From NCBI GenBank assembly GCA_963708075.1, contig OY970194.1, forward strand, positions 6,560,001-6,624,000: a stretch of DNA of 64,000 nt, given 5' to 3'. The notes under the pieces are model-generated. The model saw only the letters and a list, made by a program, of their open reading frames with translations. It had not been told where the DNA came from and searched no databases. The position numbers were made by a program, and so were the translations under genes. Of the stretch, positions 8,783 to 49,221 are shown one piece after another. Position 1 is the first letter of the stretch; each line of letters opens with the position of its first letter. This DNA comes from Sedimentisphaerales bacterium (GTDB taxonomy: Bacteria; Planctomycetota; Phycisphaerae; Sedimentisphaerales; Anaerobacaceae).

Positions 8783-8816
8783 CAATCTGATGAAGCGGTG
8801 AGTTGAGGAGAGACTC

Positions 8817-9656: not shown

Positions 9657-9679
9657 GTCGTTCGTTGCCCGCGGGCCTC

Positions 9680-9862
9680 TTAGAGGAGGTCTTCCAGGAG
9701 CCTGTCCACGACGACATCGAGCTTCTCGGCGATGTCATATCGCCCTTCGGCGAGCTGACGTTTGATGTCGAGGACTTTTTCCACCCGGAACGACGGCTCT
9801 TGTTCCGCCACCGCGGCCGCTGGACCCCGCTCATGATTGTCTGTGCACATCGTAGAATCCAT
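9680..9862 (-). CDS. FlgM-like anti-sigma-28 factor (C-terminal domain only)
   Basis: RVEKVLDIKRQLAEGRYDI.EKLD..VDRLL matches the FlgM C-terminal pattern. Confidence 0.65.
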   Translation of the reverse strand: MDSTMCTDNHERGPAAAVAEQEPSFRVEKVLDIKRQLAEGRYDIAEKLDVVVDRLLEDLL

Positions 9863-10278
9863 TCGTTACCCACCCCATAGCACGGCAAACCAAACACATC
9901 GCCCATAGAATGGAATATGGGACCCGATGTGCCAATAGGCAAAAGACCCATTATTCGATCAGGGAAAACCTGAATCGGCCATCGGGGGATAGGCGGAGGA
10001 GGCCGAGTGTCCGTGCTGCCGGCCTACACGCGAGGGGTTTTGTACTGAGCCATTCTGCGTGGATTTCCTGATGGGGAATCGCCACATCTGTCTGAGTTTG
10101 CGCGCATCCGCCCGAGCCATCTGACGGGTGAATCCCCGGCATTCAGCAGGGCTGGATGTGGCGAATACCCATCGCACCAGAACACCGCCCGAATGTATCC
10201 TACTTCATGGAAGGGGAGCGTGCCGCTCAGCGTGGGCGGGCCGATCAAGGCAGGACAGACAGATAAGGAGATCACACG

Positions 10279-31296: not shown

Positions 31297-33093
31297 ATGG
31301 GCAACCGTGTCCGTGTCGTGCACAGGTCTTTCGTCTTGCTCGTTCTCGCAGGGATCTTCATGGCAGCCGTCTCAGGGTGCAACTCGCCGGAGAAGCTGTC
31401 GCAGGTACCGGAGAATCCGCCGCAGCCGGTGCAGAAACCCGACGAGGGCTCGCCTGCCGCCGCTGTGAAGGAATCACCGGTGCAGAAGCCTGCTGACAGC
31501 ATGCCTGCCGTCGCTGTGAAAGAACCCCCAGTGCAGACGCCCGATGGCGGCTCGCCTGCCGCGGTGAAGGAAACATCGGCGCAGAAACCTGGTGACAGCG
31601 TGCCTGCCGTTGCTGTGAAGGAGCCGGCGGTACAAAAGCCGGATGACAGCTCGCCTGCTGCGGCTGTGAAGGAAGCGCCGGCACAGAAGCCCGAAAGCGA
31701 CTCGCCGGCCGCCACCGTGAAAGAACCGCCGGTGGGCGTGGTCGCCAGGATCGGCGAGCATGAGGTCACGAGGGACGAGTTGATTCAACAGCTTCTGCAG
31801 GAGATTCGGCCGCGCAGCGAAGAGTACATCGCTCCGCAGAAGCCGGTCACTGCCGAGGCGGTCCTGCTCGACCTGATTGCGGAGAAGGCCATGATGATGG
31901 AGGGACGCAAGCTCGGGTCTCTCAACGATCCGCTCCTGCAAGCCTACATTGAGCGACAGAAGAAACAGAAGCTCGGCAGCATGGTCGTGCTGGACTACGT
32001 TCGCAAGAACCTGTCCGTCAGCGAGGCCGAGATCGATGAGATGATGAAGAGCGACCCCAAGCTCACCCGCGAGCGAGCCGGCATGCTTGTACAGCGGACC
32101 AAGGGCATGGCGCTGCTGGAGCAGTTCTATAAGGATCTGCTTACGAAGTTCCATCTCAAGCAGGCGACGGAGAACCTCGCGAAAGCGTCGGAGATTCACG
32201 AGCGACTGCTGCGCAATCCGGCCAAGCCACGCAAGGAACCCTGGATCTTGAACAGCCAGGCGAGGGATGAGCTGACGCAGGAGGAAAAGGCGATGGTCCT
32301 GGCGGCCTACGACGGCGGCGAGGTCACCTTGCGGGACTGGATGGAGACGCTGTGCGAGATGGCTCCCCCGCGGCGGCCACAGGACCTGGCCACCGTGGAA
32401 GGGGTCGAGCGCCTGCTCGATAGAACGCTCCGATCCGCGATGCTCGTGGCGGAGGCGAAGGCCCGCGGGTACGACAAGGACCCCGAATACGTGCGCGAGA
32501 TCAAGGACCTCGAAGATCAGCAGATCCTCTACAAGGTCCAGAGCGACAAGATGAGGGATGTCCCTGAGCCGAACGAGGGGCAGGTTAAGGCATTCTATGA
32601 GAAGAACAAGGAGTGGTTCGCCGAGGGGCCCTTCCTGAAGGTCGATCCGATCTGGTGCAAGGATTTGGCGACGGCGCGGGAGGTGAAAGAGAAGCTTGAC
32701 GGTGGGGCGGACTTTCGTGCGATGAAAGACGCGCACTCGCTGCAGAAGGAGATCGAGCCCTACAGGATCTCCCGCAGCAGCGAGGGACCGCTCTGGGACG
32801 AGCTGTGGAAGGGCGAGCCCAACCAGGTGGTCGGGCCCGTGAAAGGGTTCTATGAGACAGGGCTTGCATGGCGCGTTGTGAAGATCCTGGAGAAGACGCC
32901 CGCTCAGGACAGGGCGTACTCCGAGCAGCTCCAAAGCATGGTCAAGGGGACGATGTTCATGGAGCAACGAAAGGCGCTCCTCGATCTCTACAGCAAAGAG
33001 CTTCGTGAGAAGTACAGCTACGAATTGTATGCGGATCGGATTCAGGGCATCGATCCTCTGGATCCGGCCCTTTACGAGCAGACAAAACAGTGA
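31297..33093 (+). CDS. SurA/PrsA-like peptidyl-prolyl isomerase lipoprotein with repeat linker
   Basis: Lipobox VSG-C, SurA-like helical region and parvulin-like C-terminus (GADF...A.S..., G..VVK+LE). Confidence 0.75.
   Translation: MGNRVRVVHRSFVLLVLAGIFMAAVSGCNSPEKLSQVPENPPQPVQKPDEGSPAAAVKESPVQKPADSMPAVAVKEPPVQTPDGGSPAAVKETSAQKPGDSVPAVAVKEPAVQKPDDSSPAAAVKEAPAQKPESDSPAATVKEPPVGVVARIGEHEVTRDELIQQLLQEIRPRSEEYIAPQKPVTAEAVLLDLIAEKAMMMEGRKLGSLNDPLLQAYIERQKKQKLGSMVVLDYVRKNLSVSEAEIDEMMKSDPKLTRERAGMLVQRTKGMALLEQFYKDLLTKFHLKQATENLAKASEIHERLLRNPAKPRKEPWILNSQARDELTQEEKAMVLAAYDGGEVTLRDWMETLCEMAPPRRPQDLATVEGVERLLDRTLRSAMLVAEAKARGYDKDPEYVREIKDLEDQQILYKVQSDKMRDVPEPNEGQVKAFYEKNKEWFAEGPFLKVDPIWCKDLATAREVKEKLDGGADFRAMKDAHSLQKEIEPYRISRSSEGPLWDELWKGEPNQVVGPVKGFYETGLAWRVVKILEKTPAQDRAYSEQLQSMVKGTMFMEQRKALLDLYSKELREKYSYELYADRIQGIDPLDPALYEQTKQ
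31426..31728. repeat. six ~51-bp tandem units encoding PVQKP.xSPA.AVKE
   Basis: Visible in both DNA and translation. Confidence 0.85.
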
Positions 33094-33159
33094 CCCTCGT
33101 GCCGAGCAGTGCCCTGGGACCACTGCCATAAACGGATTGTAGCAGGGACGGTTCTGGGT

Positions 33160-34756
33160 ATGGTCTTCACGCTGCAACGATACATATTTCGAGAGCTGTT
33201 CAAAATCTTCCTGTTGGCGACGATCGCGCTGACGCTGATTTTGAGCCTCGGCGGGATCCTGCGGCCGGTTCAGGAGTACGGGGTGGGCCTGCAGCAGGTC
33301 CTGCATATCCTGCTCTACTTCATGCCGATCACGCTGACGTTCGTCCTGCCGATGGCGGCGCTGTTCGCCTCGGCGCTGGCCTACGGCCGCTTCGCCAGCG
33401 ACAACGAGCTGGACGCCTGCCGGGCCAGCGGAATCGGGGTTTCCACGCTCGTGTATCCGGGGCTGACCCTGGCCGTTCTCGTGGCGATCGCGAATCTGCT
33501 GTTGAGTTTTCACGTCATGCCGTACTTCGTCCGGCTCGCCGAGCGGTCGTTGAAGGCGGATGCCAAGCAGATCCTTTTCCGCAACATTCAGCGGCACGGG
33601 TACTACAGCCTGCCGCCCGATGAGCGGTACCTCATCTACGCGGATTATGCCGATGCGAAGACCGATACTCTCTACGGCATCGTCGTGATTGAGTCGTCGC
33701 AGGAGGGGCTCAAGCGGATCATCACCTGTGAGTCCGCCCAGGTATACTTCAACCCCCATGACAGGTTCAACGAGGTCCAGTTGACCGCGCAACACGAGGC
33801 AATTGGGCGGCCTCGACGACATGTGGTTTGAGATCGAGGCGGCGTCGTTCCGGCAGGAGTTCGGTTCGCTCCTGGGCGATGATATCAAATTCAAGAAGAT
33901 CGATGAGATGAAGCAGATCCGCGTCAATCCGCTGCTATTCGATCCCGTGGCGAAGACAGCCCATGAGCTGTATATGCAGCTTGCAGCGGAACTGCTGTCG
34001 CAGGACATACAGGCGAGATTGGCCACGTCTCCTGCCGCCTTCTACGAGCTCGAAGGGAAATCGCAGAGGGTCCGGCTCTCCGCGATGGGATGCGTCCTGG
34101 AGGACGAGCCGGCCGTGTCGCTGCGGCCCCCGGTGACCGTGGAGGAGTATGCAAAGCAGGGCGACAAGCCGCCTCGAAAGTTCCTCAGTGAGAAGGCCAT
34201 CCTCTACCTCGACGACACCACGCCGGACCTGCAGGTCCACCTGCAACTTTCCAGCGCCGAGGTCATCGGGACGGGGCAGTCAGTGATCCATCATGCCGCC
34301 GGCGGCCTCGCCATGCCGGAATCCATCAGGCAGGCTCTCCGCCGGACGCAGGCCGGAGGGTTGAGACTCGGGGGAGATTTGAGTTCTGTGCTGCAAGGTC
34401 CGCCGAGTCCGAAGCTCGCGGGCCTCCAGGCAATATTGGAGCGGCAAATCCGCGGGACGCTGGTCGATATCACGGGCGAGATCCACTCGCGGCTGGTCTT
34501 TGGCGTCGGTTGCATTCCGATGATTCTCATCGGAATTGGCTTGGGAATCCTCAAGCGGGGTGGACACCTGCTCAGCGCATTCGGCGCCAGTTGCGTGCCC
34601 GGCGCCGTATTGATCGTGGCGATCATCAGCGGCAGGCAGGTCGCAGGGAACACCCGTTGGGCCGAGGCCACGCCCGGGATCCTCATCATGTGGGCCGGCC
34701 TGGCGTTCCTGCTGCTTCTGGCCGCCATCATCTACTCCCGGCTCCTGCGACATTAG
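33160..34756 (+). CDS. LptF/LptG family permease (frameshift near 33790)
   Basis: [12 protein letters not shown]......YGR..SDNEL.ACRASG and C-terminal TMs (EIHSR..., ..IG..LG). Confidence 0.85.
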
Positions 34757-36069
34757 GTGTCGGCACGCTGTTTGATGGCCTGGCGGACCTCGCGGTTGAT
34801 GCGGGCGCTGCACCAGTGCTGGCCGCACATGGAGCAGTAGTCGGCCGAATGCAGCTCCGATGCGCCCATTTCCTCGCACGCCTCGCGATGCATCCGGTCG
34901 GCGGTCTTCGGGTCGAGGGACTCCCCGAAATGCGTCTGCCAGTCGAGGTTGCTCCGGGCCGTGCTCAGCCTCCTGTCGCGTTCATCCGCGCCCTTGAGGC
35001 CGCGGGCGATATCCGCCGCATGGGCGGCGATCCGGGCGGCGACAACGCCGGCCCGTACGTCCTCGGCGTTCGGCAATCCGAGGTGTTCCCGGGGTGTGAC
35101 GTAGCACAGGAAGGAGGCTCCGTAGAATGCCGCCGCGCAGCCGCCAATGGCGGACGTGATGTGATCGTAGCCGGGTGCGATGTCCGTCACCAGGGGACCG
35201 AGCACGTAGAAGGGGGCCCCGTGGCAGATCTCCTGCTGGAGCTCCATATTGCGCTGAATCTGATTGAACGGCACATGGCCGGGACCTTCCACCATGACCT
35301 GGCAGCCGCGTTCCTGTGCCCTCTGGGTCAGCTCGCCCAGCGTCCGCAACTCGGCGAGCTGCGCCTCGTCGGTGGCGTCGGCGATGGCGCCGGGACGCAG
35401 GCCGTCGCCGAGAGAGAAACACACATCGTATTCGACCATGATGTCGCACAGGTCGTCGAACAGCTCGTACACGGGATTCTGCTTATTGTGATGGAGCATC
35501 CACTTGGCCAGCAGGGCGCCGCCCCGGCTGACGATGCCGGCGACGCGCTTCTCGATCAGCGGCAGGTGCTCCCTCAGCACACCGGCGTGGATCGTAAAGA
35601 AATCGACCCCTTGCTTCGCCTGCTTTTCAATCGTCCGCAGGATGATGTCGTTGTCGATGTCTTCGACGTTCCTGCCCTCGATCACCTGATAGATCGGGAC
35701 GGTGCCGAAGGGGACCGGGCAATGCGCAAGCAGCTCGCTGCGGATTTCGTCAAGATTGCCACCGGTGCTGAGGTCCATCACCGCATCGGCCCCGACCTCC
35801 AGCGCCGCCTCCAGCTTCTCGATCTCGGCGGCCACGGAAGAGCGGACGCTGCTTGTCCCGATATTGGCATTGACCTTCGTCCTGAGCGCTCTGCCGATCC
35901 CCGCCGGCTTGAGATTGGTCTTCAGGTGGAGTCCGTTGGCCGGGATCACCAGCCGTCCCGCCGCCACCTCCGCCCGGATGAGCTCGGCATCCACCGCCTC
36001 GTCCCGCGCCACAGCCTGCATGGCCTGCGTGATCTTTCCGGCTCGAGCGTGCTCCAGTTGCGTCGTCAT
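34753..36069 (-). CDS. thiC: phosphomethylpyrimidine synthase
   Basis: [45 protein letters not shown] and CSMCG..WC motifs. Confidence 0.98.
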
Positions 36070-36093
36070 GATTCTACACTCCTCGTTGCCAAT

Positions 36094-36121
36094 AAAAAAA
36101 TCGCTCCCGCAGGAAGCGATT
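36094..36121 (-). terminator. riboswitch expression-platform terminator
   Basis: Minus strand aatcgcttcc-tgc-gggagcgatt plus T tract, between the aptamer and thiC. Confidence 0.75.
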
Positions 36122-36151
36122 CGCCAACTCTCGATGCCTCGTTTGTCGCAT

Positions 36152-36276
36152 CGCTTTCCTACGCAGGCCTTCTCGCCCCCGCATCCGAGTTTCGGATGCG
36201 ATCCATGGAGCGATTATCCCGATCAGGTTCAAAGGGTTTTGTCTCAGACCCGCCTCACAGCAGGCCACCCCTAGCG
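36152..36276 (-). ncRNA. TPP riboswitch (with 44-nt L5 insertion)
   Basis: Minus strand GGGGTGGCCTG...GGTCTGAGA-CAAAACCC-TTTGAACCTGATCGGGATAAT[insert]GCCTGCGTAGGAAAG upstream of thiC. Confidence 0.92.
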
Positions 36277-36285
36277 ACCAAATCC

Positions 36286-36313
36286 ATTATACCGGACCGG
36301 CGGTACCGTTCAA
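36286..36313 (-). promoter_or_regulatory. sigma70-like promoter of the thiC leader
   Basis: TTGAAC-16 bp-TATAAT immediately upstream of the aptamer. Confidence 0.7.
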
Positions 36314-36339
36314 GCAATTCTTCCCGATCTGAACGCCAT

Positions 36340-36533
36340 GTGTGCGACTACATTTTGTGGGGAAGGAGGCTCATTCTGTCATCCCGAGCCCATTCGACTA
36401 CGCTCAGGGCAGGCTGCGCGAGGGATCTGGCCGAGATTGCACGGTGCGCCTTTGCGATGCCAGATGTCTCGGCTACGCTGCGCTTCGCTCGACATGACAA
36501 ACGGGGGCTTCACCACGAAAATTAGTCGCACAC
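36340..36533. mobile_element. MITE copy 3 (194 bp, 8-bp TSD AACGCCAT, different interior)
   Basis: TIR gtgtgcgactacattttgtgg / ccacgaaaattagtcgcacac. TSD at 36332-39 and 36534-41. Confidence 0.9.
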
Positions 36534-36577
36534 AACGCCATGTGCAGGAGCGTGCAGGAGAAACCTGAGCTTTCCAT

Positions 36578-36606
36578 TTGATCTCTCCGGAGCTTCGGGC
36601 TACAAT
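36578..36606 (+). promoter_or_regulatory. possible sigma70 promoter of the TIR-CHAT-STAND gene
   Basis: TTGATC-17 bp-TACAAT. Confidence 0.5.
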
Positions 36607-36700
36607 AAGGTCGATAGAAGCGGCGTGCGGCACGGGTGAGACAGTGCCGGCGAGTTTCCATCTGTTATTGCGGGCCAGATGTCTTGGAGGTCATGGAAGA

Positions 36701-39700
36701 ATGCGCGACGGTCGCAACGCCGCTGTGTTCATCAGTCATGCCAGCGCCGACGATGAATTCGTAAAGCAATTGCGAGAATCGCTCGAAGCCCACCATATAC
36801 CCGTTTGGGTGGACTCCCGCGGCCTGCGGGGCGGCAGCAAGCTCGCGCCGGAGATCGCGCAGGCCATCGGCAACGCCCGACACTTCATCGCTGTGCTCGG
36901 CCCAGAAACCGTGAACTCACGATGGGTTCGCCGGGAGATCGAGCGGGGGCTATTGGTCGAAAAGCGGCGCAAAGCCGACGGCTATCGCGTCATTCCGCTC
37001 CTGCTCCCCGGCCTTGAGCCCGCCGCCCTGGAAGCCTGGTTCGATGAGGAGCCGACAGGCATTTCAGTTGGGACCGGCCCGGACGGCCTTTCCGCGGCCA
37101 TGCCTGACATCCTCGCTGCTCTGGGGGAACGCCTGCCCACCGGCAGCCAAATGGCTGCCCAGGCCGATGGCAAGCCGCTGGCGGAGCTCGTCCTCACGCT
37201 CGCGGACGCGAAGATCGAGACTCAGGAAGGCAAAAGGCGTGCCAGTGCCGTCGCTATGCTCACCTATGAGCCGGCTGACTCCGCTGTCAAGGGCATCGAG
37301 AGCCGCCGCTTCGCGTTCACCGCGCCGCTCGGGCCCATTGAGGCCGACGACCTGCGATGGTACCTGGAGCAGTATTTCCTCTGGCCGGTCGGCGTGTTCG
37401 AGAACCCGCGCTAAGGGCATTGAGAAGAAGTTGCCGCAATGGGGTAACGATCTCTTCCAAGCTGTGCTGGGCATCGACACCGCTCGCGAGGCGTTCTCCG
37501 CCTGGCAACATGCCGCCGACGGTGCCGAACGGCGCTTCTCAGTGCAGGTGAACAGTGATCTGCCCGACGGCGCGCCCGCCGAAGCCCAAGCCGCCGCGCG
37601 TGAGGCGGCGACTGAGCTTCTCTCCCTTCCGTGGGAGCTTCTGCACGATGGTCACGACTGGCTCTTCCAGGGAGCGCATCCTGCTCGGGTTCGCCGTCGT
37701 CTGCCAAGCCGTCAGGAACAGAAGGCACGTCCTGCAACCCTGCCCATCCGCATCCTGCTCGTCAGCCCGCGTCCGGAGCATGATGGCAAAGGCAACGACA
37801 TCGGTTATATCGACCACCGTATCAGCGCCCGGCCGCTGGTCGATGCGGTGGAAAGCCTCGGCGAGTTGGCGAAGCTCACGATTCTCACGCCGCCCACCTA
37901 CGCTGCACTGGATGAGGCCCTGCAGGCCGCCGCCGACCGCAATGAGCCGTTCGATGTCGTCCACTTCGACGGCCACGGAGTCTATGACCGTCACCTTGGC
38001 TTGGGCGGATTGTGCTTTGAAGATGCCAAAGACGCCGGCTTGCCGGAAAAGCGTCAGATGGAGTTCGTCGACGCTGTCAAACTGGGCGGTCTGTTCCGTC
38101 AACACCGCGTCCCGTTGGTGTTCCTGGAGGCCTGCCAGACGGCGGTGGCCGAGGTGGACCCGACGACCTCCGTGGCCGCGAGGCTGCTTGAAGAAGGTGT
38201 CACGTCCGTCGTGGCAATGAGCCACAGCGTGCTGGTCGAGACGGCCAGACGATTCGTGCAGGCATTCTATAAGTCATTGGCACAAGGTGCCCGCGTGGGC
38301 AAGGCCATGCTCGCCGGCCAGCGAGCGCTCTTCGATGACACCTGGCGCGGCAAGATCATGGGCGCGGGCGACCTGCGATTGCAGGACTGGTTTGTGCCCG
38401 TCGTCTACCAGGAGAAGCACGACCCGCAACTCATCACGAGAACTCCGGCAAGGGAGGTGCGCCAGCTCGAAGCCAGGAGGCGAAGGCTCAGCCTCGGCGC
38501 GCTGCCGGAAGAGCCGCCACACAGGTTCCAGGGGCGCAGCCATGAGCTGCTCGCCCTCGAACGGCTCCTGCACGACGAGCCCTGGGCCGTCGTGCGTGGT
38601 ACCGGTGGCTCGGGCAAGACTACGCTTGCCGCCGAGTTGGCCCGCTGGCTCACTCGCACAGGACGCTTTGCGCGGGCCGCCTTCGTGAGCCTCGAACACC
38701 ACCGCGACGCGCGTGCCGTGCTCGACACCCTCGGCCATCAACTCCTGCCCGACGGCGACAAATACTCTGTAGCCCAGTTCCCGAGCTTTGACAAAGCCCT
38801 TCAACCCGTAGAGCGGGCACTGGCGGACCACGCCACCATTATCGTCCTGGACAACTGCGAGAGCATCCTGGATGCAGGCGACGCCCTCACGGCGTTGCTC
38901 GACCTGTGCAAGCGGCTCCTCGACGCGGACCCAAGGATCCGCCTCGTCTTCACCATGCGTGAGCCGCTGCCCGCACCGTTCGACCACGCAGGCCGCCAGC
39001 GGGAACTGGGCGACTTGGCCCGCCCCGACGCCATCGAGCTGGTGGGCAAGGTAATGAAACAGAACGGTTGGACGCCGCCCGCCACCGACCCGGGCGGCAC
39101 GCCGCAGGAGATCACCGACTTGGTGGAGGCGGTGCACTGCCATGCCCGCGCCCTGGTGCTCCTGGCGGGCGAGGTGGCCCGTCGTGGCGTGAAGGCCACC
39201 ACCGCCAATCTCCGCGCTCTCATGGCCGAGTTGGAGCGCAAACACCCTGGCGACCGCGAAAACTCACTCTACGCCAGCGTCGAACTCTCCCTCCGTCGCC
39301 TCTCCCCCGAATCGCGCCAGCACGTTAAGGTGCTCGGCGTCTGCCAGGGTGGAGCATGTCTTCCCATTCTCGCGCACCTCACAGGCTTGGAAGTAGACGC
39401 TGCTCGCCAACTGGCCATTGAACTGATCGACGTCGGCTTAGCCGAAGACATGGGCTATGCCCACCTGCGCCTGGACCCCGGCCTGCCGCCATATCTGCTA
39501 GGCGAGTTGACTGGTGACGAAGCTATCGCCACACGCGCCAAGTGGGCCGAGGCCATGGCCCAACTCACCGTCTACCTCTACGAGGAGCAGTTCAAAGATG
39601 CCCAACTCGCCGCGCAACTGACGCTGCTGGAGTTGCCTAACCTCCTTGCGATGCTGGAGTGGGTTTCGGCCTCCGACTGGCCGGCGGAAAGCGTCGTAGG

Positions 39701-41069
39701 TCTGGCCGACAGCGTGGAAAGGCTAGTCGCCAACCTAGGCCAGCCCCAAGCTCTGGCCGTGGCCACGCGCGTGCGCGAACAAGCCGCTCGGAAACTGGGC
39801 GACTGGAGCCACGCCCGTTTCCTGACCGGGTCTTCCAACATTGACCGGCTGCTGGAACGCGGCGACCTGCCGGCCGCGCACGAGTGCGCCCAGCAACTCC
39901 TCGCAAAGTGCCGTGCCGCCGGTGAGGCTGCCTATCCTGAAGCGGCTTACGATCTCGCATCGGCATTTATCCGGCTCGGGCGAGCGTTAGGGTATAGTGG
40001 AGCGGCTGAAGCCGCATTGGAGCCGCTGGCGGAAGCACAGCGCCGATTCCAGCAACTGGCAAATGCCGGCGATGCTGACGCCGAGCAGGTGGCCTCGGCT
40101 GCCATCACCGAGACTGGCGACTGCCTGCGCAACTTGGGCCGGTTGGATGAAGCCGCCGCCGCATATGAAAAGGCTATCGAGCTCGACCAAGCAGGCAATC
40201 GCATGAGGGATGTTGCTGCTGGTAAGGGTCAACTTGGCACCGTGCGGATGTTGCAGAAACGCTACGCTGAGGCGCTCAAGGCTCACGCCGAAGCACGCGA
40301 CACCTTCGAAGCATTGGGGGAACCGCAAAATGTGGGCGCAATGTGGCACCAGATCGGGATGGTACATGAGAGCACTCACCGATTGGAGCTCGCTGAGCAG
40401 GCCTATCGCCAAGGTTTAGCCATTTTTGTGCGAGAGAACGATGCCCCACACCAAGGTATGAGTCTTGGCCAACTGGGCAGTCTCTACGACGCGATGGGCC
40501 GGTTGGAGGAAGCGGTCACGTTCTATCGGCAGGCCATTGGCGTTCGTGCGCGGCTGAAAGACCTTGCTGGCGAAGGGAGAACCCGCAGCAACTTGGCTGA
40601 CACGCTGACCAAGTTGCTGCGCTACGACGAGGCCCGGCAGGAACTCCAACGGGCGATTGAGTGCAAGAAACCTTACGGCCACGCCGCCGAACCGTGGAAG
40701 GCATGGTCACATCTCGAAGACCTCGAGCGCGCCACCAACCACGGTGAAGCCGCTGCTGCGGCCCGGGAACAGGCGATCCAGACCTATCTGGCCTATCGTC
40801 GCGCCGGCGGCGTTAGCCAGAGCTCTCGCGCCCGACTCTTCGACCTCGTCTCCCAAGCGATCAAGGAGAACGCTCCTGCGGAGGCCCGCCAACTTCTGTC
40901 CCAGCTTGCTTCGCGTCCCGACTTACCTCACTTCGCGAAAGCGTTGATCGCGGAACTCCAGTCGGTGCTCGTCGGCGAACGCGATCCTGCCCTTGCCGCT
41001 GACCCCGAACTCACTCCAAGGGACGCTGCTGAACTTCAACTGCTCCTGGAGAAGCTGCCGCTTGGGTGA
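36701..41069 (+). CDS. TIR - CHAT (caspase-like) - STAND/NB-ARC-like NTPase - TPR protein (frameshift near 37403)
   Basis: TIR: VFISHAS.D, VWVD, S.WVRREI. CHAT: LPWELL, VHFDGHG, VFLEACQT. Walker A GTGGSGKTT, Walker B IIVLDN.E, multiple TPRs. Removing one A in gagaacccgcgctaag joins the two frames. Confidence 0.88.
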
Positions 41070-41084
41070 TCCGACGATTTTGTC

Positions 41085-43094
41085 TCACAGGATGCCGTTG
41101 ACGCTGGTGAAGAGGGTTTCGAATCTTTCGAAGGCTTCGTCGGCGCCGGGCAGTTTCTGGATTTTTCTGTGGTTGCTGCGGAACAGGAATTCGGCCGGGA
41201 TCATCGGGTCGAAGTTGACGGGTTTCACCTGGCCGGTGGCGAAGGCACTGTGCACGATCTTCAGGACAGGCTCGTCGGTGACGGCGGCCACCGTGCGCGA
41301 CAGCCTGTGCCTGCGAGGCAATCCAAAGGATTGGTCCGTCAGTGCCAGGTACATTCGCGGGCCGATCAGGTCCTCGACCGTGCTCGTGGCCGGTTCGGCG
41401 TACTTGTGCAGCGGGAAGACGTGGCACCGTTCGAGCATGCGGGAGACCTCTCGATGCTCGGTGATCTCCGGGCGAACCTCGGAAAGACTCAGCAGCACGG
41501 CAAAGCCCGAAGCGTCGTTGGCCAGCAGACCCGCCAGGGTCGCCAGCCGGACGAGATCGCCGCACGGGACGATGGTCCAGGCCGGGTGCAGACCGGTCCT
41601 GCCTCGCTCGTTCAGGCGCGCGGAGAACCACTGGAGGTACAGCACATCCGCGGGCTTTTCCACCAGCAGCAGTTTCTTCGCCGCCGTCAGGTCCTGCATG
41701 ATCCGATATCCCAGCGACGCCTGAAGCGGCAGCAGGGTGTCATGGTCCATGCTGAGGACTTCATCGCCCACCTTTGTGCCCAGATACTCCAGCCTGCCGT
41801 CCGGCGTCTGCCGAGTCACCTCCTCAACTGTGCGAACCCACTGCATCCTCTCCGGATCGATCATGAACGGAGAGTGCGTCGCGTAAAGCACCTGGTACTG
41901 AGAGACCAGTCGCTCGCGGATGTATCGAAGCAGGTCCCACTGCGCCTTGGCGTGCAGGCCGAGCCCGGGATCATCCAGGAGGATGATGAGGTTGTCGCCG
42001 TAACGCCTGCGGACGCCGGCGTACCAGACCAGGAAGGAGAAGAACCAGACGAACCCGGTGCTGCGCTCCGAAAAGTTGAGGGACAGATCGGTTCTCGTAT
42101 TGACGATGCGGGTCTCGAAGACCAGCCCGCGGTCCATGGGCGACGGATCGCCCGGGCGGGCGGGGTAGAGATGGAAGCTGACCCTCAGGTCCCGCTCCTG
42201 ACTCCAGTACTTGGCGATCTCGACGGTGATGGGCCGGGCGGCGTCTTCCAGGTCCGCGATGAGCTCCTCCGACCGCTCGATACTGGTCAGTGCCTCCACC
42301 GAGGTGCCCCCGAGTTCCAGCAGCGCGAGGAAGACCCGGTCCGGGCCCGTGAGGTCGCCCTTCTTTCGTCTCTCCAGCAGCGCATCGATCGAGATGCGTC
42401 CATCCATAATGTGCCATTCGGAGAAGTACAGGAGCTTGGGCAGCAGCGCTCCCACGTGCTGCTCAAAGCATGCATTGTCGGCAGGAACAGGGTCGGCAGG
42501 CGGCGTCGGCATTGTCCGCGACGGGCTCTCGATGGAGCTTCGCTCCTCCTCGACTTCCGGCGTCTCCGTCTCCTTGGCAACATCCTGGATCTGTCTCAGA
42601 CTCCTCACAGCCTCCTCCAACATCCGAGAGCGATCGTCCAGATCGTCCGCGGTCTGCGCCGGCTGCGGGTCATGCGGCACATTCATCGATCGGCTGACGG
42701 ATGCGTTCATCGCTGTGAGCGAGCCGGTCCATCGGCGCCCGGGATAGTACCCTTTCTCTACGACTATGGTGCGGGATTTGACCGCGCCGGGGCCGAGGAT
42801 GCTCTCCAGCTTCTCGACATCCTTGTCCTCCAGCTCCCACGTGGTGATCAGGGCATCATCCGGCTCGCGATTGGGCTGCTTCTGATACTCGCGGCGGCGG
42901 GCCCGCGGATACTCCATCAGGACGTCGAAATTGGCCAGTTCATCGACATCCGGATTCAGCTTATAGAGTGCTTCCAGAAGCGAGGTCTTGCCGGCGCCGT
43001 TCTTGCCGACAAAGGCCGTTACCGGGCTGACGCTGAATTCCGTGGAATCCTCGATACAACGAAAGTTCTTGACTTGCATCCGTCGCAGCTTCAT
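41085..43094 (-). CDS. OLD-family/AAA_15 ABC-type ATPase with degenerate TOPRIM
   Basis: NFRCIED, VGKNGAGKTS.LEAL, SERSTGF.WFFSF, LLDDPGLGLH, THSPFMI and LLVEKPAD motifs. Confidence 0.85.
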   Translation of the reverse strand: MKLRRMQVKNFRCIEDSTEFSVSPVTAFVGKNGAGKTSLLEALYKLNPDVDELANFDVLMEYPRARRREYQKQPNREPDDALITTWELEDKDVEKLESILGPGAVKSRTIVVEKGYYPGRRWTGSLTAMNASVSRSMNVPHDPQPAQTADDLDDRSRMLEEAVRSLRQIQDVAKETETPEVEEERSSIESPSRTMPTPPADPVPADNACFEQHVGALLPKLLYFSEWHIMDGRISIDALLERRKKGDLTGPDRVFLALLELGGTSVEALTSIERSEELIADLEDAARPITVEIAKYWSQERDLRVSFHLYPARPGDPSPMDRGLVFETRIVNTRTDLSLNFSERSTGFVWFFSFLVWYAGVRRRYGDNLIILLDDPGLGLHAKAQWDLLRYIRERLVSQYQVLYATHSPFMIDPERMQWVRTVEEVTRQTPDGRLEYLGTKVGDEVLSMDHDTLLPLQASLGYRIMQDLTAAKKLLLVEKPADVLYLQWFSARLNERGRTGLHPAWTIVPCGDLVRLATLAGLLANDASGFAVLLSLSEVRPEITEHREVSRMLERCHVFPLHKYAEPATSTVEDLIGPRMYLALTDQSFGLPRRHRLSRTVAAVTDEPVLKIVHSAFATGQVKPVNFDPMIPAEFLFRSNHRKIQKLPGADEAFERFETLFTSVNGIL

Positions 43095-43286
43095 GACTGC
43101 ATTCCTCCACTGAGGTGTATATTCGCCTTTCGCCCCAGCCGACTTGCCAATCGTTCGCTATCCTAACAGGGGCTTCCGCATCCGTCAAATGCATGTCATT
43201 CATATTTTACTCTATAGCGCCCGGATGACGGTGAAATCCGGGTGGCGAATGGGATGAAGTCAGCCGGTGATCGACGAACGCGGCGC

Positions 43287-44345
43287 CTACTGACCCTCGA
43301 ACGAGTGCTGATCGGCCACGTTCAGCCCGGCCAACTCGGCCATGGCTTCCCATGTCAGGGCCGGACTATCGCTCTCTTTGTGATCGGCTGTCATATGCGT
43401 GGGGATACACAGCACTTCCATTTCCATGCCCGCGGGGCTCTCGATGTCCGCGCCGTCGGCCGGGAGGCACGTGAGATAGAAAGTAGTATCGTGGGTCGTG
43501 CCTTGCGGATCTTTGTGTGTCAGTCTTACGGCCAGCTCATCGTCCTGCTCGACGATCTCGACCTGTGCCGGCTCACCTGGCCCCGTATCGCTCATCTTTT
43601 CGAGCCATTCGCCGAGCGACAGACCCAGGAGAGTGATCTGTCCATCGAGCTCTCTCGCCAGTTGCCGGTTTCGGAATTCCTCAAGCTCGTCCGATTCGCT
43701 CTGCTTGTCTTGAAACGGCGGCAGGGGTGCGATTCCGGGCAGGCCGGACTGCGTCTTGACCAGCACCGCGCCGTCCCGGAAAACGACGCAGATGTGCGAG
43801 TCGTCCGGATTGGCCCAAACGTACACCTGGTTCGCCGCCCCATCAAAATAGGAACTGCTGAGCTGTTCGCCCTGCGCGCCGAGAAGGTCGGCCACTTGGC
43901 GATAGGTCATGCCTTTTTGAATCTGAGTGTACATGGAGCTCGTGAAGGTCAGGTCCGCGGCAGGAGGCGTCTGAGGGGCTTCGGCCTCCTGCGACGCCGT
44001 GGTATCGACAGCGTTCGCGTCAGGCGCGGGCACGTCGTCAGGGGATTGGCCGGCGGGTTGGACCGGCGGCTTCAGCCTGGTAAACGTGTACGCAATATCC
44101 TGACCCGAGACTCGGACTTCAATGCTGCTTTGTATGCCGTTCAGCAGCAGGGCGAATCCTTCGTAGGTTCCATCCGCCCTTTCCATCAGCATCACGGACC
44201 GGCAGCAGTCGTACATGCGCTCATTGATGTGAGCTTTGACGCGCTCCTGCAACTCGGTTCTGCTGATGCCTTGTGCACAGGATGTATTGGCTCCGAGCCA
44301 GCCAACCAACGCTAACGCCATTGCGGTATACATGGGTCTACGCAT
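43287..44345 (-). CDS. secreted protein with DUF3862/BLIP-like domain
   Basis: Signal peptide and Y.QIQ.GMTY.QV..LLG..G......YVW.N.D.S...V.F.DG....K.QSGL motif. Confidence 0.7.
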   Translation of the reverse strand: MRRPMYTAMALALVGWLGANTSCAQGISRTELQERVKAHINERMYDCCRSVMLMERADGTYEGFALLLNGIQSSIEVRVSGQDIAYTFTRLKPPVQPAGQSPDDVPAPDANAVDTTASQEAEAPQTPPAADLTFTSSMYTQIQKGMTYRQVADLLGAQGEQLSSSYFDGAANQVYVWANPDDSHICVVFRDGAVLVKTQSGLPGIAPLPPFQDKQSESDELEEFRNRQLARELDGQITLLGLSLGEWLEKMSDTGPGEPAQVEIVEQDDELAVRLTHKDPQGTTHDTTFYLTCLPADGADIESPAGMEMEVLCIPTHMTADHKESDSPALTWEAMAELAGLNVADQHSFEGQ

Positions 44346-44504
44346 AGCACGTCATCCTATAACAAGTGAAATCATCCTGTCAGTTGCTGAATGGACCCCA
44401 TTATACCATCGGCCGACCTGTTCTTGTCTCGCAAGTGCATCGCTGGTATAGTGGCGCTATATTCCTCGTTCTTGTAGGCCGCAAATGCAAAGGAGGTTCA
44501 GATC

Positions 44505-45452
44505 ATGGGCAACGAGTACAGCATATCCCGGCGGAGTTTCTTGAAAACGTCAGTGGTCGGTGCAGTGGTCGCAGCAACAGTCGGCAGGAATTCCGCGATG
44601 GCTGCACAAGGCGGCACATTGCGGCTGGGCGGGCCGGTCTTTGAGAAGGTCCAGGACTCGCAGGGCTGGGTCGACGCGGTCAAGAAACTGGGCTATTCCG
44701 CCGCGTATTGCCCCGTTGGACCTGATGCCGGCGACGACGTGGTCCGGGCCTACGAGGAGGCCGCGGCTAAGGCGGGCATCATCATTGCCGAAGTCGGGGC
44801 GTGGAGCAATCCGATCAGCCCGGATGAGCCGACACGCAAGGCTGCTCTGGAGAAATGCCGCACGAGCTTGGCCCTGGCCGACCGTATCGGGGCCCGCTGC
44901 TGCGTCAATATCGCAGGCACCCGCAGCACGCAGTGGGATGGTCCCGATGCCGCCAATTTCACGCAGGGAACGTTCGATATGATTGTCGAAACGACGCGGT
45001 CGATCATCGATGCTGTCAAGCCGACGCGGACGTATTTCACCCTGGAGATGATGCCCTGGGCCTATCCCGACTCGCCGGACTCGTACGTGCAATTGCTCAA
45101 GGCAATCGACCGCAAGCAGTTCGCCGTGCACCTCGACCCCGTGAACCTCGTGTGCAGCCCGCAGCGATACTACGGCAACGGCCGGCTCATCCGCGAGTGT
45201 TTTGAGAAGCTCGGCCCTTACATCCGGAGCTGCCACGCAAAAGACATCCTCCTGCATCCGAAGCTCACAACGCATCTCGACGAGGCGCTGCCGGGCACAG
45301 GCGGTCTGGACTATGCCACATTTCTCAAGGAGCTGAACAAACTGCCCGGCACGCCTTTGATGCTGGAACACCTGTCCAAGGCCGAGGACTACGTCCAGGC
45401 CGCCGACTACATCCGACGTGTCGCGAAACAACTGGAGTTGTCATTCGCCTGA
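44505..45452 (+). CDS. sugar phosphate isomerase/epimerase (TIM barrel), Tat-exported
   Basis: SRRSFLK, LEMMPW, VHLDPVN, CHAKD, PG.G.LDY and MLEH motifs. Confidence 0.9.
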   Translation: MGNEYSISRRSFLKTSVVGAVVAATVGRNSAMAAQGGTLRLGGPVFEKVQDSQGWVDAVKKLGYSAAYCPVGPDAGDDVVRAYEEAAAKAGIIIAEVGAWSNPISPDEPTRKAALEKCRTSLALADRIGARCCVNIAGTRSTQWDGPDAANFTQGTFDMIVETTRSIIDAVKPTRTYFTLEMMPWAYPDSPDSYVQLLKAIDRKQFAVHLDPVNLVCSPQRYYGNGRLIRECFEKLGPYIRSCHAKDILLHPKLTTHLDEALPGTGGLDYATFLKELNKLPGTPLMLEHLSKAEDYVQAADYIRRVAKQLELSFA

Positions 45453-45475
45453 TGGCCACCCCGGGTCAGCGGCGC

Positions 45476-45671
45476 GGGTGCGACTACATTTCGTGGGCCC
45501 CGATGGCTTCGCAGGGCGGGCGAGGACGCCCACCCTGCGCCCGGAGCCGTCGGCGCTCTTCGTAGGTCGTGCGTCCCCGCACGACTCTTTTGGCATTGAG
45601 TGGATACAGGTCGAAACGCACGGTTTCTCACCCGGCCGGCAGAATCTCCCCCACGAAATTTAGTCGCACAC
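45476..45671. mobile_element. MITE copy 2 (196 bp, 8-bp TSD AGCGGCGC)
   Basis: TIR gggtgcgactacatttcgtgg / ccacgaaatttagtcgcacac. TSD at 45468-75 and 45672-79. Interior similar to copy 1. Confidence 0.9.
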
Positions 45672-45680
45672 AGCGGCGCC

Positions 45681-45758
45681 GGGCGCCATGTCTACGCTGC
45701 GTAGACATGTCCGACCAGATGCCCATAGCATGCTTACGCGAGCGTAAGCATGGCGCCC
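45681..45758. repeat. REP-like doublet (GGGCGCCATG...CATGGCGCCC)
   Basis: Two hairpins, catgtctacgc-t-gcgtagacatg and catgcttacgc-ga-gcgtaagcatg. Related copy at 55297-55375. Confidence 0.8.
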
Positions 45759-45761
45759 GGA

Positions 45762-46948
45762 TCAGGCAGTGCCGGGGTTCTCGTGGGTCGATCCGCCGCG
45801 GTGGGCGGCGTGCTTGCCGTAACGGTCGCGGATCTTGTCCACGACCTGGTCGAGGCGCTTGAGCTTCTCCTGTTCGGGGTCGCGAAAGAGCAGTTGCTGG
45901 CCGGCCTGCTCCGGCGTCAGGCCGGATACGCCGAAGCCAAGCAGACGCAGCGGACCGCCGGAGCGGGCGTGCCATTGGCGAAAGACGTGCTCCGCCGTTG
46001 CCCACAGGGTCTTGGTGACGTTTGTCGCCTCGCTCAAGGTATCGCTGCGCGTCACCGTGCGGAAGTCGCCATACCGCAGCTTCAGTGTGACCGTCCGAGC
46101 CTTGAGTCTCTCCTGGCGCAGCGCTGCGCGACCTCCTCCACCTGTTCAAGCAGCACGGCCAGCAGTATCGCCGCATCGCTGATGTCCGTCGCGAACGTCT
46201 GTTCGCTCGACAGGCTCTTGCACTGGCGGTCCGGCTCGACGTCCCTGTCGTCCTCGCCCCGGGCCAGCCGCTGCAGGTCGTCGGCTCCGTTGCCGACGAT
46301 CCTCTGGAGTTCCTCCAGGCTGCTTTGGCGAAGTTGGCCGATCGTGTGAATGCCGTGTGATTTCAGGGCCTTCTCCGTAACCTGGCCGACGCCCCAGATC
46401 TTGCCGACCGCAAGCGGATCGAGAATCTGCTGCTTGTTCTGTTCCGTAATCACCACGAAGCCATCGGGTTTCTTCAGGTCCGACGCCAGCTTGGCGAGGA
46501 ACTTGTTCGGCGCGATCCCGACCGAGGCGGTCAGATGCGTCTGCTCGAGGATTTCCTTTTTGATGGCTCGGCCGATTGTCTCTGTGCTGCCGAAGAGATC
46601 GGTGCTGTCGGTGACGTCGAGAAAGGCCTCATCGAGCGAGATCGGCTCCACGAGGGGCGTGTACTTCTCGAAGATCGCGCGGATGATATGCGAGACCTCC
46701 GCGTACCGGTCCATCCGGACGGGCAGCAGGACGGCATGGGGACAACATCGGATCGCCTGGGCCGTCGGCATGGCGCTGTGGACACCGAACTTGCGGGCCT
46801 CGTAGGACGCGGCGCTGACCACGCCCCGGCTGCGCGCGTCGCCGCCCACGATGACGGCTTTGCCCTTGAGCTCCGGGTGGTCGTGCTGCTCCACCGAAGC
46901 GTAAAACGCGTCCATATCGACGTGAATGATCTCACGGGCCTTGCTCAT
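45762..46948 (-). CDS. dinB: DNA polymerase IV (frameshift near 46120)
   Basis: HVDMDAFYASVE, SYEARKFGV.SAMP, SLDEAFLD and NKFLAKLASD..KPDG. The little-finger domain (TVTLKLRY.DF.T.TRS) is in the next frame. Confidence 0.95.
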
Positions 46949-47079
46949 GACTTCACCGGGATACCATCATTGCTGATCATTGTACCAAAGTTCAGGTCCC
47001 GCGGACAGACTGTTTGATGTTTCGTGGCCTGGGAGGTATGCTTGAGCCCGATTATGACCCGGATGTCTCGGAGAAACTG

Positions 47080-49221
47080 ATGAACCCGCAAACGCCGTAC
47101 AACATGTCCTTACGATTCAGAATTCATGCGATCTGCCTGCTGGTGGCACTCGGTCTGCTCTGCGTGGGGCGAGCGGGTGCCCAGTCCAGTCTGAAGGTCG
47201 TTCTGCCGGAATGCGGACACCCGCATCTGGCGTGTACGGCCGAGGAACTGGGGCGGTTGCGGCAGGCATATCGCGGCCAGGGCGCCGAGCATGACGTCGT
47301 CGCCGCTTATGTGACGGATGCGGAGCGATTCATCACCGACCCGATCAACTTCCCGCCGCGAGGTGGTCAGCACAATCAATGGTATCAATGCGACAAATGC
47401 CAGGTGGCGCTGCGGACGATTGACGCGACTCATCATGAGTGCCGCAAGTGCAAGAAGGTCTACTCCGGGCCGCCGTATGACGATGTGATCTTTGCGCACG
47501 AGCATAGCCGCAATCTTCAGCGGATGACGACTGCCGCCTGGGCGTATGCGATCTCGGGCGACAGGAAATTCGCCGGATACGCCGCCAGGGTCCTGCTTGG
47601 CTATGCGGAGCGATACTCGCAATACCCTTATCACGACAACTCGTTGAAAACGAACCCAGCCGAGATGGGCAAGTCGGGCGGACACCTGTTCGAGCAGACG
47701 CTGAACGAGGCGGCGAGCATGGCGACCAGCATCGGCCCGGCGTACGACCTGATCCACGACTGTAACGCGCTATCGGCATCCGATCACCGGAAGATTCGCG
47801 AGGGCCTGCTGCTGCCCGTGCTCAGGAACATCGACAAGCACAAGGCAGGCAAGAGCAACTGGCAGACGTGGCACAACGCCGCGATGCTCTGGGGCGGGGC
47901 GCTGGTGCACGATCCGAACTGGGTCCGGAAGGCGGTCGCGGACGAGCGGAACGGGTTCTATTACCAGATGGATGCCTCCGTCTCAAAGGAGGGGATGTGG
48001 TATGAGAATAGTTGGGGGTATCACTTCTACACGCTCAGTGCGTTGATTGAGATGGCTGAGACGGCCCGGCGGCTGAACATAGACTTGTGGGACCACGAGC
48101 GGCTCAAGAAGATGTTCACGCTGCCGGTCTACTATGCGATGGGCGACGGGATGCTCCCGCGGTTCGGGGACGATGTCAATTCATCCGTCAGGCGGGTCGG
48201 CCGCATGTTCGAGCCCGCCTACCACGTCTATCGAGACCCGCAGCTTCTGCCGCTGCTGAGCAACAGACCAGGTTTCGAGAGCGTCCTCCTGGGACGACCC
48301 ACCCAGGCATCCGCCGAGTTGCCCGCACTACAGAGTATGGTCTTTGAGGAGGCGGGACACGCAATTCTGAGGGGGCCGGGCCCGGCGGGACTGACGGCGG
48401 CGATGACATTCGGACCCTACGGCGGTTTTCATGGGCACTACGATAAGCTGAGCTTCGTCCTCTTTGGCTTCGGCAGGGAGCTTGGCGTCGATCCTGGCCG
48501 AGCCGCCAGCCAGGCCTACCGCCTGCCCATCCATTCGAATTGGTACAAGGCCACGATTTCGCACAACACCGTACTGGTGGACGGGCGAAGCCAGAAGCCG
48601 GCCGCCGGCAAGCTGGAGCTATTCGATCGCAAGGATGGTTACACCGCCGTGGCGGCAAGCTGCCTGGAGGCTTACCCCGGCGTGACACATAAACGCCTGC
48701 TCTTTATCACCGACGCCTACCTGCTCGTCCTTGATGAGCTGCGCTCGGATGCCGATCGCCGGTTCGACTGGCTGTACCACAGCAAGGGCGCTCGCGTGGT
48801 TTGTGACCAGGCTCAGGACAGCGCAGCCCCGGCGGCGGACTACGCGGGCGGCGAGTACATCCAGAATCCCAGGCGGGGCACAACCGGTGAGCCGGTTCGT
48901 GCGCGGTTTGAGGATGGGAACGTGACGACGTACCTGACCATGGCCGGCTCGGCCGACACGATGGTAACAACCGGCGATGGGGTGGGCGCTTCGGTGGATG
49001 ACCGGGTCCCCATGGTCATTGTCGGCAGAAACGGCCGGGACATGCGTTTCGCGGCGGTCCTGGAGCCCGTGCGGGCCGGGGTGCAGCCGCAGGTTGTCGG
49101 CGTTCGGCTTGAGGAAACCCCCGATGGCTTGGCGGTCGCTGTGCAGCTTGACGGCCGCACAGATACCGTCAAAACACGCCCGGAGGGTGGGATTTCCGCT
49201 ACCCTGTCGCAAAAACCGTGA
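47080..49221 (+). CDS. alginate lyase / heparinase II/III-family polysaccharide lyase, secreted
   Basis: F.Q.LNEA, NWQ.WHN, G.WYE.S.GYHFY, HGH.DKLS, DPG...Y and T.SHNT+.VD motifs. Confidence 0.85.
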   Translation: MNPQTPYNMSLRFRIHAICLLVALGLLCVGRAGAQSSLKVVLPECGHPHLACTAEELGRLRQAYRGQGAEHDVVAAYVTDAERFITDPINFPPRGGQHNQWYQCDKCQVALRTIDATHHECRKCKKVYSGPPYDDVIFAHEHSRNLQRMTTAAWAYAISGDRKFAGYAARVLLGYAERYSQYPYHDNSLKTNPAEMGKSGGHLFEQTLNEAASMATSIGPAYDLIHDCNALSASDHRKIREGLLLPVLRNIDKHKAGKSNWQTWHNAAMLWGGALVHDPNWVRKAVADERNGFYYQMDASVSKEGMWYENSWGYHFYTLSALIEMAETARRLNIDLWDHERLKKMFTLPVYYAMGDGMLPRFGDDVNSSVRRVGRMFEPAYHVYRDPQLLPLLSNRPGFESVLLGRPTQASAELPALQSMVFEEAGHAILRGPGPAGLTAAMTFGPYGGFHGHYDKLSFVLFGFGRELGVDPGRAASQAYRLPIHSNWYKATISHNTVLVDGRSQKPAAGKLELFDRKDGYTAVAASCLEAYPGVTHKRLLFITDAYLLVLDELRSDADRRFDWLYHSKGARVVCDQAQDSAAPAADYAGGEYIQNPRRGTTGEPVRARFEDGNVTTYLTMAGSADTMVTTGDGVGASVDDRVPMVIVGRNGRDMRFAAVLEPVRAGVQPQVVGVRLEETPDGLAVAVQLDGRTDTVKTRPEGGISATLSQKP

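Follow-up and report, generated by a model that had tools for sequence, protein, structure and literature searches.

The stretch analyzed here, a 64,000-nucleotide window of contig OY970194.1 from a Sedimentisphaerales bacterium (assembly GCA_963708075.1, positions 6,560,001 to 6,624,000), contains a gene whose product joins a TIR domain, a caspase-like CHAT protease, a STAND NTPase and a TPR sensor. An initial annotation, made from the letters alone, had described the gene as a nucleotide-binding leucine-rich repeat receptor-like (NLR-like) protein with two effectors, and all the motifs that it named (WVRRE, HFDGHG, LEACQ, GTGGSGKTT and VLDN) were found in place (Table 1). In Pfam searches the P-loop region matched NB-ARC, AAA_16 and nSTAND1 at about 1e-6 to 1e-7, and the repeat array matched TPR_12 at 1e-24. 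Both STAND hallmarks, a Walker A motif of the form GxxGxGKT and a Walker B motif of the form hhhhD, are intact in the window gene, and the order of its domains, a nucleotide-binding domain followed by helical and winged-helix domains and then a repeat sensor, fits the STAND class.

Table 1. The receptor gene, its parts and other features of the window (positions counted from the first letter of the window).
Feature	Position	Strand	Remarks
TIR-CHAT-STAND-TPR gene	36701-41069	+	1455 amino acids as read with the X2 contig; two frames as assembled
TIR domain	36719-37138	+	Pfam TIR_2, E 4.6e-23; catalytic-position Glu in WVRRE (36923-36937)
Predicted pseudo-protease lobe, Csx29/separase type	37172-37733	+	From the model of relative P0004; holds the frame break
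Active-protease lobe (CHAT)	37734-38432	+	Pfam CHAT, 2.8e-23; His in HFDGHG (37962-37979), Cys in LEACQ (38124-38138)
STAND NTPase, NB-ARC/AP-ATPase type	38490-39500	+	Walker A GTGGSGKTT (38598-38624), Walker B VLDN (38844-38855), conserved TxR, helical and winged-helix region
TPR sensor	39501-41066	+	All-helical, near-fixed length; conserved C-terminal cap
Sigma-70-like promoter candidate, TTGATC-17-TACAAT	36578-36606	+	Consensus match only
Miniature inverted-repeat transposable element (MITE), 194 bp	36340-36533		Terminal inverted repeats and 8-bp target duplication
Second MITE copy	45476-45671
Thiamine pyrophosphate (TPP) riboswitch upstream of thiC	36139-36282	-	Rfam RF00059, 55.6 bits
Promoter match beside the thiC riboswitch	36313-36286		10/12
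OLD-like ABC ATPase gene	41085-43094	-	Convergent with the receptor gene; weak PADLOC Old/AriA/GajA matches
Open reading frame (ORF), 352 amino acids	43287-44345	-	Signal-peptide-like start; weak BLIP/BamE matches
Membrane-protein gene	33109-34756		Split by a frame break at 33785; presumably LptF/G-like
Gene	45762-46948		Split by a frame break at 46119; presumably DinB-like

As assembled, the TIR frame (36701-37414, 237 amino acids) ends at a stop at 37412-37414, and the remainder runs in another frame to the end of the gene. Two public sequencing runs of one study, X1 and X2, contain more than half of the stretch, and two further runs, X3 and X4, contain small shares. X1 and X2 may derive from the source sample itself, and they lend the organism no independent support. 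Contigs of these runs were compared over 32500-47500. Base 37403, which the initial annotation had marked for verification in reads, is missing from an X2 contig that covers 37101-37483 and is otherwise identical (depth 3.2, flagged as possibly erroneous); run X1 has no coverage of this position. With the base removed, the join reads FETRAKG, matching three of the four closest relatives compared, and the predicted chain of about 1450 residues is obtained at 1455. The X1 and X2 runs also mend the frame breaks at 33785 and 46119, which indicates that the assembly carries indel errors and that its frameshifts deserve distrust. In addition, the genome holds an intact paralogue (G000:C1:4466260-4470789, minus strand, locus L067) of 1509 amino acids and about 50% identity, which has all catalytic residues and sits in another branch of the family tree. 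Because the X2 contig lacks the base, and because 94 full-length relatives and the paralogue read through this point, we read the gene as a single ORF; judged from these sequences, the break is most likely an assembly error. We consider it very improbable that, within a real family, the copy in the window is genuinely broken or dead and consists of a TIR fragment next to a separate CHAT-STAND-TPR ORF. The stop in the assembly, the single contig of low depth and the frequency of broken copies among relatives (15 of 64 loci) speak for a split copy; however, the X2 contig agrees over 382 bases, and the only base missing from it is the very one whose removal gives back the sequence of the relatives. 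Two further breaks within 15 kb are mended by the same runs, and the gene has no further stop or lesion. Moreover, the break falls inside the predicted pseudo-protease lobe, which, judging from the model, would be unable to fold as two genes.

The organization of the protease was taken from a model of residues 1-598 of the relative P0004 (pLDDT 84.8, pTM 0.84). Residues 157-575 of this model matched Csx29 (Z 19.9, rmsd 4.3, 308 residues aligned), separase (Z 18.6, rmsd 4.1, 311 aligned), SAVED-CHAT (Z 18.3) and DdvA (Z 16.6). On this model, the stretch between the TIR and CHAT regions would form the pseudo-protease lobe of a two-lobed, Csx29/separase-type protease; this prediction speaks against a separate third domain at this place, which had been considered. 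Among solved structures, the TIR domain is nearest by sequence to Cat1, AbTir and TcpB, which have a NADase role. A model of the C-terminal 870 residues of the window protein (pLDDT 89.3) gave as its top Foldseek matches the archaeal STAND-TPR protein 6mfv (E 1.8e-11), Apaf-1 (2.3e-8) and CED-4. The modelled sensor resembles the peptide-binding TPR proteins LGN, Rap and NprR, a kind of comparison in which helical repeats easily score high. Its span is 487-516 amino acids in 61 of 63 representatives, and its C-terminal cap has an invariant Arg and an invariant Glu. The near-fixed length and the invariant cap suggest that the TPR sensor reads one conserved ligand and is not a diversifying repeat array.

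Queried with residues 1-700 of the second frame, a protein search gave 2825 passing matches. Among the best 120 listed, 119 were not the window's own, at 62-81% identity: 94 full-length proteins with a TIR domain, which were aligned, 10 TIR-bearing fragments and 15 proteins without a TIR domain as called. The TIR Glu, the CHAT Cys, the Walker A Lys and the Walker B Asp are each present in 94/94 of the aligned relatives, and the CHAT His in 93/94. A scan of GTDB genomes returned 64 family loci, which by record title come from more than ten phyla; where covered, the Glu is kept at 47/47 loci, the His and Cys at 50/50 and the Lys at 52/53. The ratio of nonsynonymous to synonymous substitution (dN/dS) relative to a congener's copy is 0.09-0.21 across all domains, with dS about 1 or more and near saturation; loci L066 and L001 gave identical values and were counted as one comparison. 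These data indicate that the TIR and the protease sites are both under constraint. The family gene was found in 1 of 23 congeners and in none of 17 genomes further removed, with scoring limited to 16 candidates per genome; thiC was found in 21 of the 23 congeners; the distribution of the family is patchy and accessory-like. Matches to more remote CHAT-STAND relatives (27-30% identity) leave out the TIR part. The best ESM Atlas score was 0.87, under the 0.9 line, and the ESM Atlas matches serve as leads only. The copy in the window is unremarkable within this widespread family, for which no named profile was found; the family is not a new class. Copy number varies at some loci: an extra TIR gene lies just upstream of the family gene at L004, and L015 has two neighbouring copies. 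Genome G050 has eight family matches, and P0082 and P0104 are two Actinoplanes paralogues with consecutive accessions.

Natural variants of the family bear on how its two outputs are related. In a profile search of representatives at 50% identity, 78 of the best 150 listed were at least 1000 amino acids long. A TIR domain is carried by 54 of them (45 with both the Glu and the His/Cys dyad, 8 with the Glu and no dyad, 1 with the dyad and no Glu), so that the catalytic-position Glu is kept in 53/54; 17 are TIR-less as called, of which 15 keep the dyad, and the 7 that look truncated were excluded from the tree. In two lineages (P0030/31/36/66 and P0198), in-frame TIR deletions fuse the first TIR strand to the protease, with the dyad kept; since that strand is retained, these cannot be start-call errors. 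TIR-less forms are scattered over a 77-row FastTree phylogeny, with 15 state changes (mean of shuffles 18.7; 8 of 300 shuffles as low), and forcing them into a single clade costs about 1490 log-likelihood units in a FastTree likelihood comparison. Conversely, four of the dyad-less members that keep the Glu have TIR domains scoring 164-167 bits, against a median of 129. Domain swaps occur as well: one TIR-less member, P0255, has a PNP-family domain (PNP_UDP_1) at its C terminus (residues 1370-1618), and in P0019 an N-terminus without a Pfam match (residues 1-278) replaces the TIR domain. This N-terminus may resemble MoxR/vWA ternary-system proteins. The window's own database entry appears TIR-less from the frame error, and a look at the DNA before a TIR-less start was uninformative, since the only copy obtained from one metagenome scan is truncated at its N terminus. 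On this unrooted tree, the simplest history would be that a CHAT-STAND-TPR core gained a TIR domain and then repeatedly lost one or the other output; the protease would accordingly appear to be the original core output, to which the TIR domain was added as a second.

That either output can be lost singly favours two parallel outputs over an obligate relay. The initial annotation had proposed a receptor coupling NAD cleavage or signalling with proteolysis, and as a relay this coupling conflicts with the loss pattern. A relay on one chain might take the form of CHAT cutting the TIR-CHAT linker to free or activate the TIR domain, much as protease-fused Avs proteins activate an effector whose gene lies just upstream, or of an ADP-ribose signal from the TIR domain switching on the protease. 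The TIR domain is indeed placed like the latent effectors MBL, Pepco and EACC1 relative to Avs proteases, as described in the available portions of PMC12642450; the linker holds a conserved LGxRLPxD motif; the TIR and CHAT parts of the model are compatible with fixed docking; no other substrate is encoded nearby; and type IV Thoeris, in the available text of Rousset et al. (10.1101/2024.10.24.620036), couples a TIR protein with a caspase-like protease. However, the TIR-deleted forms retain the His and the Cys, the dyad-less forms retain the Glu, four of them with the high-scoring TIR domains noted above, and the interval between TIR and CHAT shows the predicted pseudo-protease lobe and no nucleotide-sensing domain. 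We therefore regard such a relay as unlikely.

The surroundings of the gene were assessed by comparing the ORFs of the 64 loci all-against-all. No neighbour family is conserved across them, the largest outside clusters (two-component or ABC genes) touching eight loci; nor did any conserved adjacent substrate gene, a trait of the protease-latent effector systems and of Craspase, appear at the 64 loci. Most family neighbourhoods are housekeeping. The three nearest ORFs on each side were then scanned for defence genes with PADLOC (E 1e-25) at the 52 of 64 loci with usable flanks (262 ORFs), with 120 ORFs from 20 genomes as controls, each taken at a distance of 40 kb on the contig of the locus. 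Matches were found for 16/262 neighbour ORFs versus 1/120 controls (Fisher p 0.013), and 13/52 loci were positive versus 1/20 controls (Fisher p 0.048); the defence matches include type II restriction-modification, IetAS, HEC-01 and PDC-S01. For the most part the gene stands alone among housekeeping genes, with a weak lean towards defence neighbours.

In the window, the gene lies between thiC, with its TPP riboswitch, and the convergent OLD-like gene. The latter had been named as the one adjacent gene that might encode a protease substrate, an idea that finds no support: no neighbour is conserved in the 64 loci, and in the only congener that has both genes they lie on separate contigs. It was likewise rejected as a partner, being found in 2 of 23 congeners and there not beside the receptor gene, and the only such ATPase neighbour compared at related loci was barely alike. 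The OLD-like gene is a candidate stand-alone defence gene. At locus L059, a TIR gene and a Peptidase_C14-TIR fusion gene lie directly downstream of the family gene (7964-10211).

Housekeeping neighbourhoods at most loci are also what might be expected of a stress or developmental switch, in which the TPR array would read a host peptide or metabolite and the protease would make a limited regulatory cut, in the manner of non-defence STANDs and of developmental CHAT proteases. Such a role would agree with the matches to HetF, AfsR and FxSxx-system TPR profiles, which are weak and all far below cut-offs, with the likeness of the sensor to peptide-binding TPRs, and with the interspersion of defence and non-defence STAND clades reported in the available portions of Lee et al. 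2026 (PMC13581612). Set against this, the gene is sporadic among congeners yet occurs across phyla, there is no conserved target operon, the TIR Glu is invariant, and one relative shows the PNP-family domain swap, all of which suits a conflict gene more than a hard-wired regulator. A regulatory switch of this kind appears quite unlikely.

We consider it probable that the protein is a stand-alone, NLR-like receptor of the abortive-infection type, with two predicted enzymes acting in parallel. Its architecture, the conserved catalytic residues, the lack of a fixed partner gene and the existence of relatives without one output are direct observations. The mechanism that we propose is modelled on known STAND receptors (Lee et al., PMC13581612; Avs2-trypsin). 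At rest, the switch would carry ADP and be kept closed by the TPR array. The array would recognize a conserved ligand, which is most likely a fold of a phage protein, and this binding would relieve autoinhibition, whereupon ATP binding and oligomerization would cluster the N-terminal domains. Clustered TIR domains would cleave NAD+, the clustered or unblocked CHAT protease would cut host proteins encoded elsewhere, and either predicted enzyme could bring about cell arrest or death; the added TIR domain may hedge against phage inhibitors of either route. Phage sensing by the window protein is suggested here by analogy with these receptors. More tentatively, the chain may be a 'resistosome-apoptosome' hybrid, in which one conserved phage or danger ligand would fire a NAD-cleaving TIR domain and a separase-type protease in the same oligomer, the TIR domain being docked at rest. 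This seems somewhat less likely than not. If true, such a hybrid would join plant-NLR and animal-apoptosome outputs in one protein, with natural single-output variants for comparison.

As a single-gene immune receptor, then, the initial description stands with respect to the single chain, the conserved sites, the STAND-TPR switch, the patchy distribution and the PNP-family effector swap; the defence context is enriched only weakly. Several observations tell against an immune receptor with two working outputs. The window protein reached no NCBIfam family at cut-off, and PADLOC 2.0 gave no AVAST profile match for it at E <= 0.001, so that the proposed Avs-type membership was not borne out. A search of IMG/VR gave three distant matches to the CHAT region (27-31% range), and a plasmid collection gave seven records below 31% identity; none of either set covers the TIR domain. 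In genome-matched pairs the defence lean is 4/20 versus 1/20 and not significant (p 0.17), 39 of the 52 loci have no PADLOC match nearby, and 4 of the 13 positive loci depend on generic kinase, ABC or RecQ matches only. Frame breaks or internal gaps occur at the 15 of 64 loci mentioned above. Lastly, among the 17 'TIR-less' representatives 3 begin inside or after the TIR domain, the lack of a TIR domain in P0081 comes from a wrong start call alone (its cluster mate has 1447 amino acids), and the dyad-less members, whose branches are long, may be in decay.

Each part of the protein and its general logic are already known; the variation lies in the tandem arrangement of TIR and CHAT on a STAND-TPR chain. 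With the Avs/AVAST proteins, in the available portions of Lee et al. 2026 (PMC13581612), the family shares an N-terminal effector, a STAND switch and a TPR sensor of more than 400 amino acids in one gene, and its TIR and CHAT domains are immune effector domains of the kind carried by defence-associated STANDs. TIR-bearing and caspase-bearing Avs members are known separately there, whereas the window family carries two tandem effector domains and has a weak link to defence islands. Five accessions and a genus name were absent from seven supplements of Lee et al., the clade tables lying outside this search. Among STAND-fused proteases, Avs2-trypsin-MBL and EACC1-Avs12 (PMC12642450; 10.64898/2026.08.25.746987, both in available portions) share with the family a second effector just upstream and activation driven by oligomerization; their effector, however, is a latent substrate that needs cleavage, a dependence that the loss pattern of the window family argues against. 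The portions of PMC12642450 covered contain no mention of TIR or CHAT (0 matches). Type IV Thoeris is likewise a defence system that combines a TIR protein with a caspase-like protease, but there the two are separate proteins linked by N7-cADPR, with no STAND (Rousset et al., available text). The window family has one chain, from which either part can be lost, and the two are joined to a STAND on a single chain in the 94 full-length relatives.

For the protease, Csx29/TPR-CHAT (Craspase), SAVED-CHAT, DdvA and separase share the predicted two-lobed fold and the His/Cys dyad (Z 16.6-19.9 against the model); here the protease is N-terminal to a STAND, lacks a CRISPR, SAVED or sigma-factor partner and has no substrate encoded next to it. 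For the switch, the best structural matches are the Apaf-1/CED-4 apoptosome and the PH0952-type STAND-TPR protein (6mfv); unlike in the apoptosome, the protease is fused directly and not recruited, and a TIR domain is added. Comparable combinations are touched on in the parts available of several sources: bacterial NLR-like proteins with either TIR or CHAT alone at the N terminus (Dyrka et al.; ParA preprint), caspase-NACHT/NB-ARC proteins (PMC3501461) and TIR-ATPase-TPR proteins (PMC11350192). Kaur et al. 2021 (PMC8195603; 12 of 13 files covered) mention STAND-GT4 proteins with N-terminal TIR and caspase domains and an EACC2+caspase module fused to STANDs, and their supplement file 1 annotates a Frankia neighbour gene as TIR+CASPASE+APATPase+TPR+TPR. 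The Frankia protein and EACC2 are like our family by annotation or description only, and in the material covered the Frankia gene is a single incidental mention and not a family description. No study or description of a TIR-CHAT-STAND-TPR family was found in the full-text literature searched, most subscription papers being beyond its coverage.

Most bacterial STAND receptors characterized so far bear a single effector, or else a protease by which a separate effector is activated. In the present family, two catalytic sites are maintained on the same chain in more than ten phyla. With it, a single gene would suffice to examine whether dual outputs hedge against phage counter-defence. The family also bears on how a STAND ATPase switches a Csx29/separase-type protease, and on what such a protease cuts where it has no dedicated substrate gene.

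Upstream of the gene, the promoter that the initial annotation had assigned to it is present as a sigma-70-like candidate scoring 9/12, a consensus match for which three sites were found against 0.2 expected in shuffled sequence. The MITE reported just upstream is real, but it is one of 11 genome copies and not specific to this gene, and it was set aside as a component of the system because the family is genome-wide and incidental to the receptor gene. Its members are 174-200 bp long and have 8-bp target duplications; their ends are conserved, while their interiors vary. The 11 copies with duplications were found among 21 end-pairs examined in the genome. The window's second MITE copy and the remaining minor genes are placed in Table 1.

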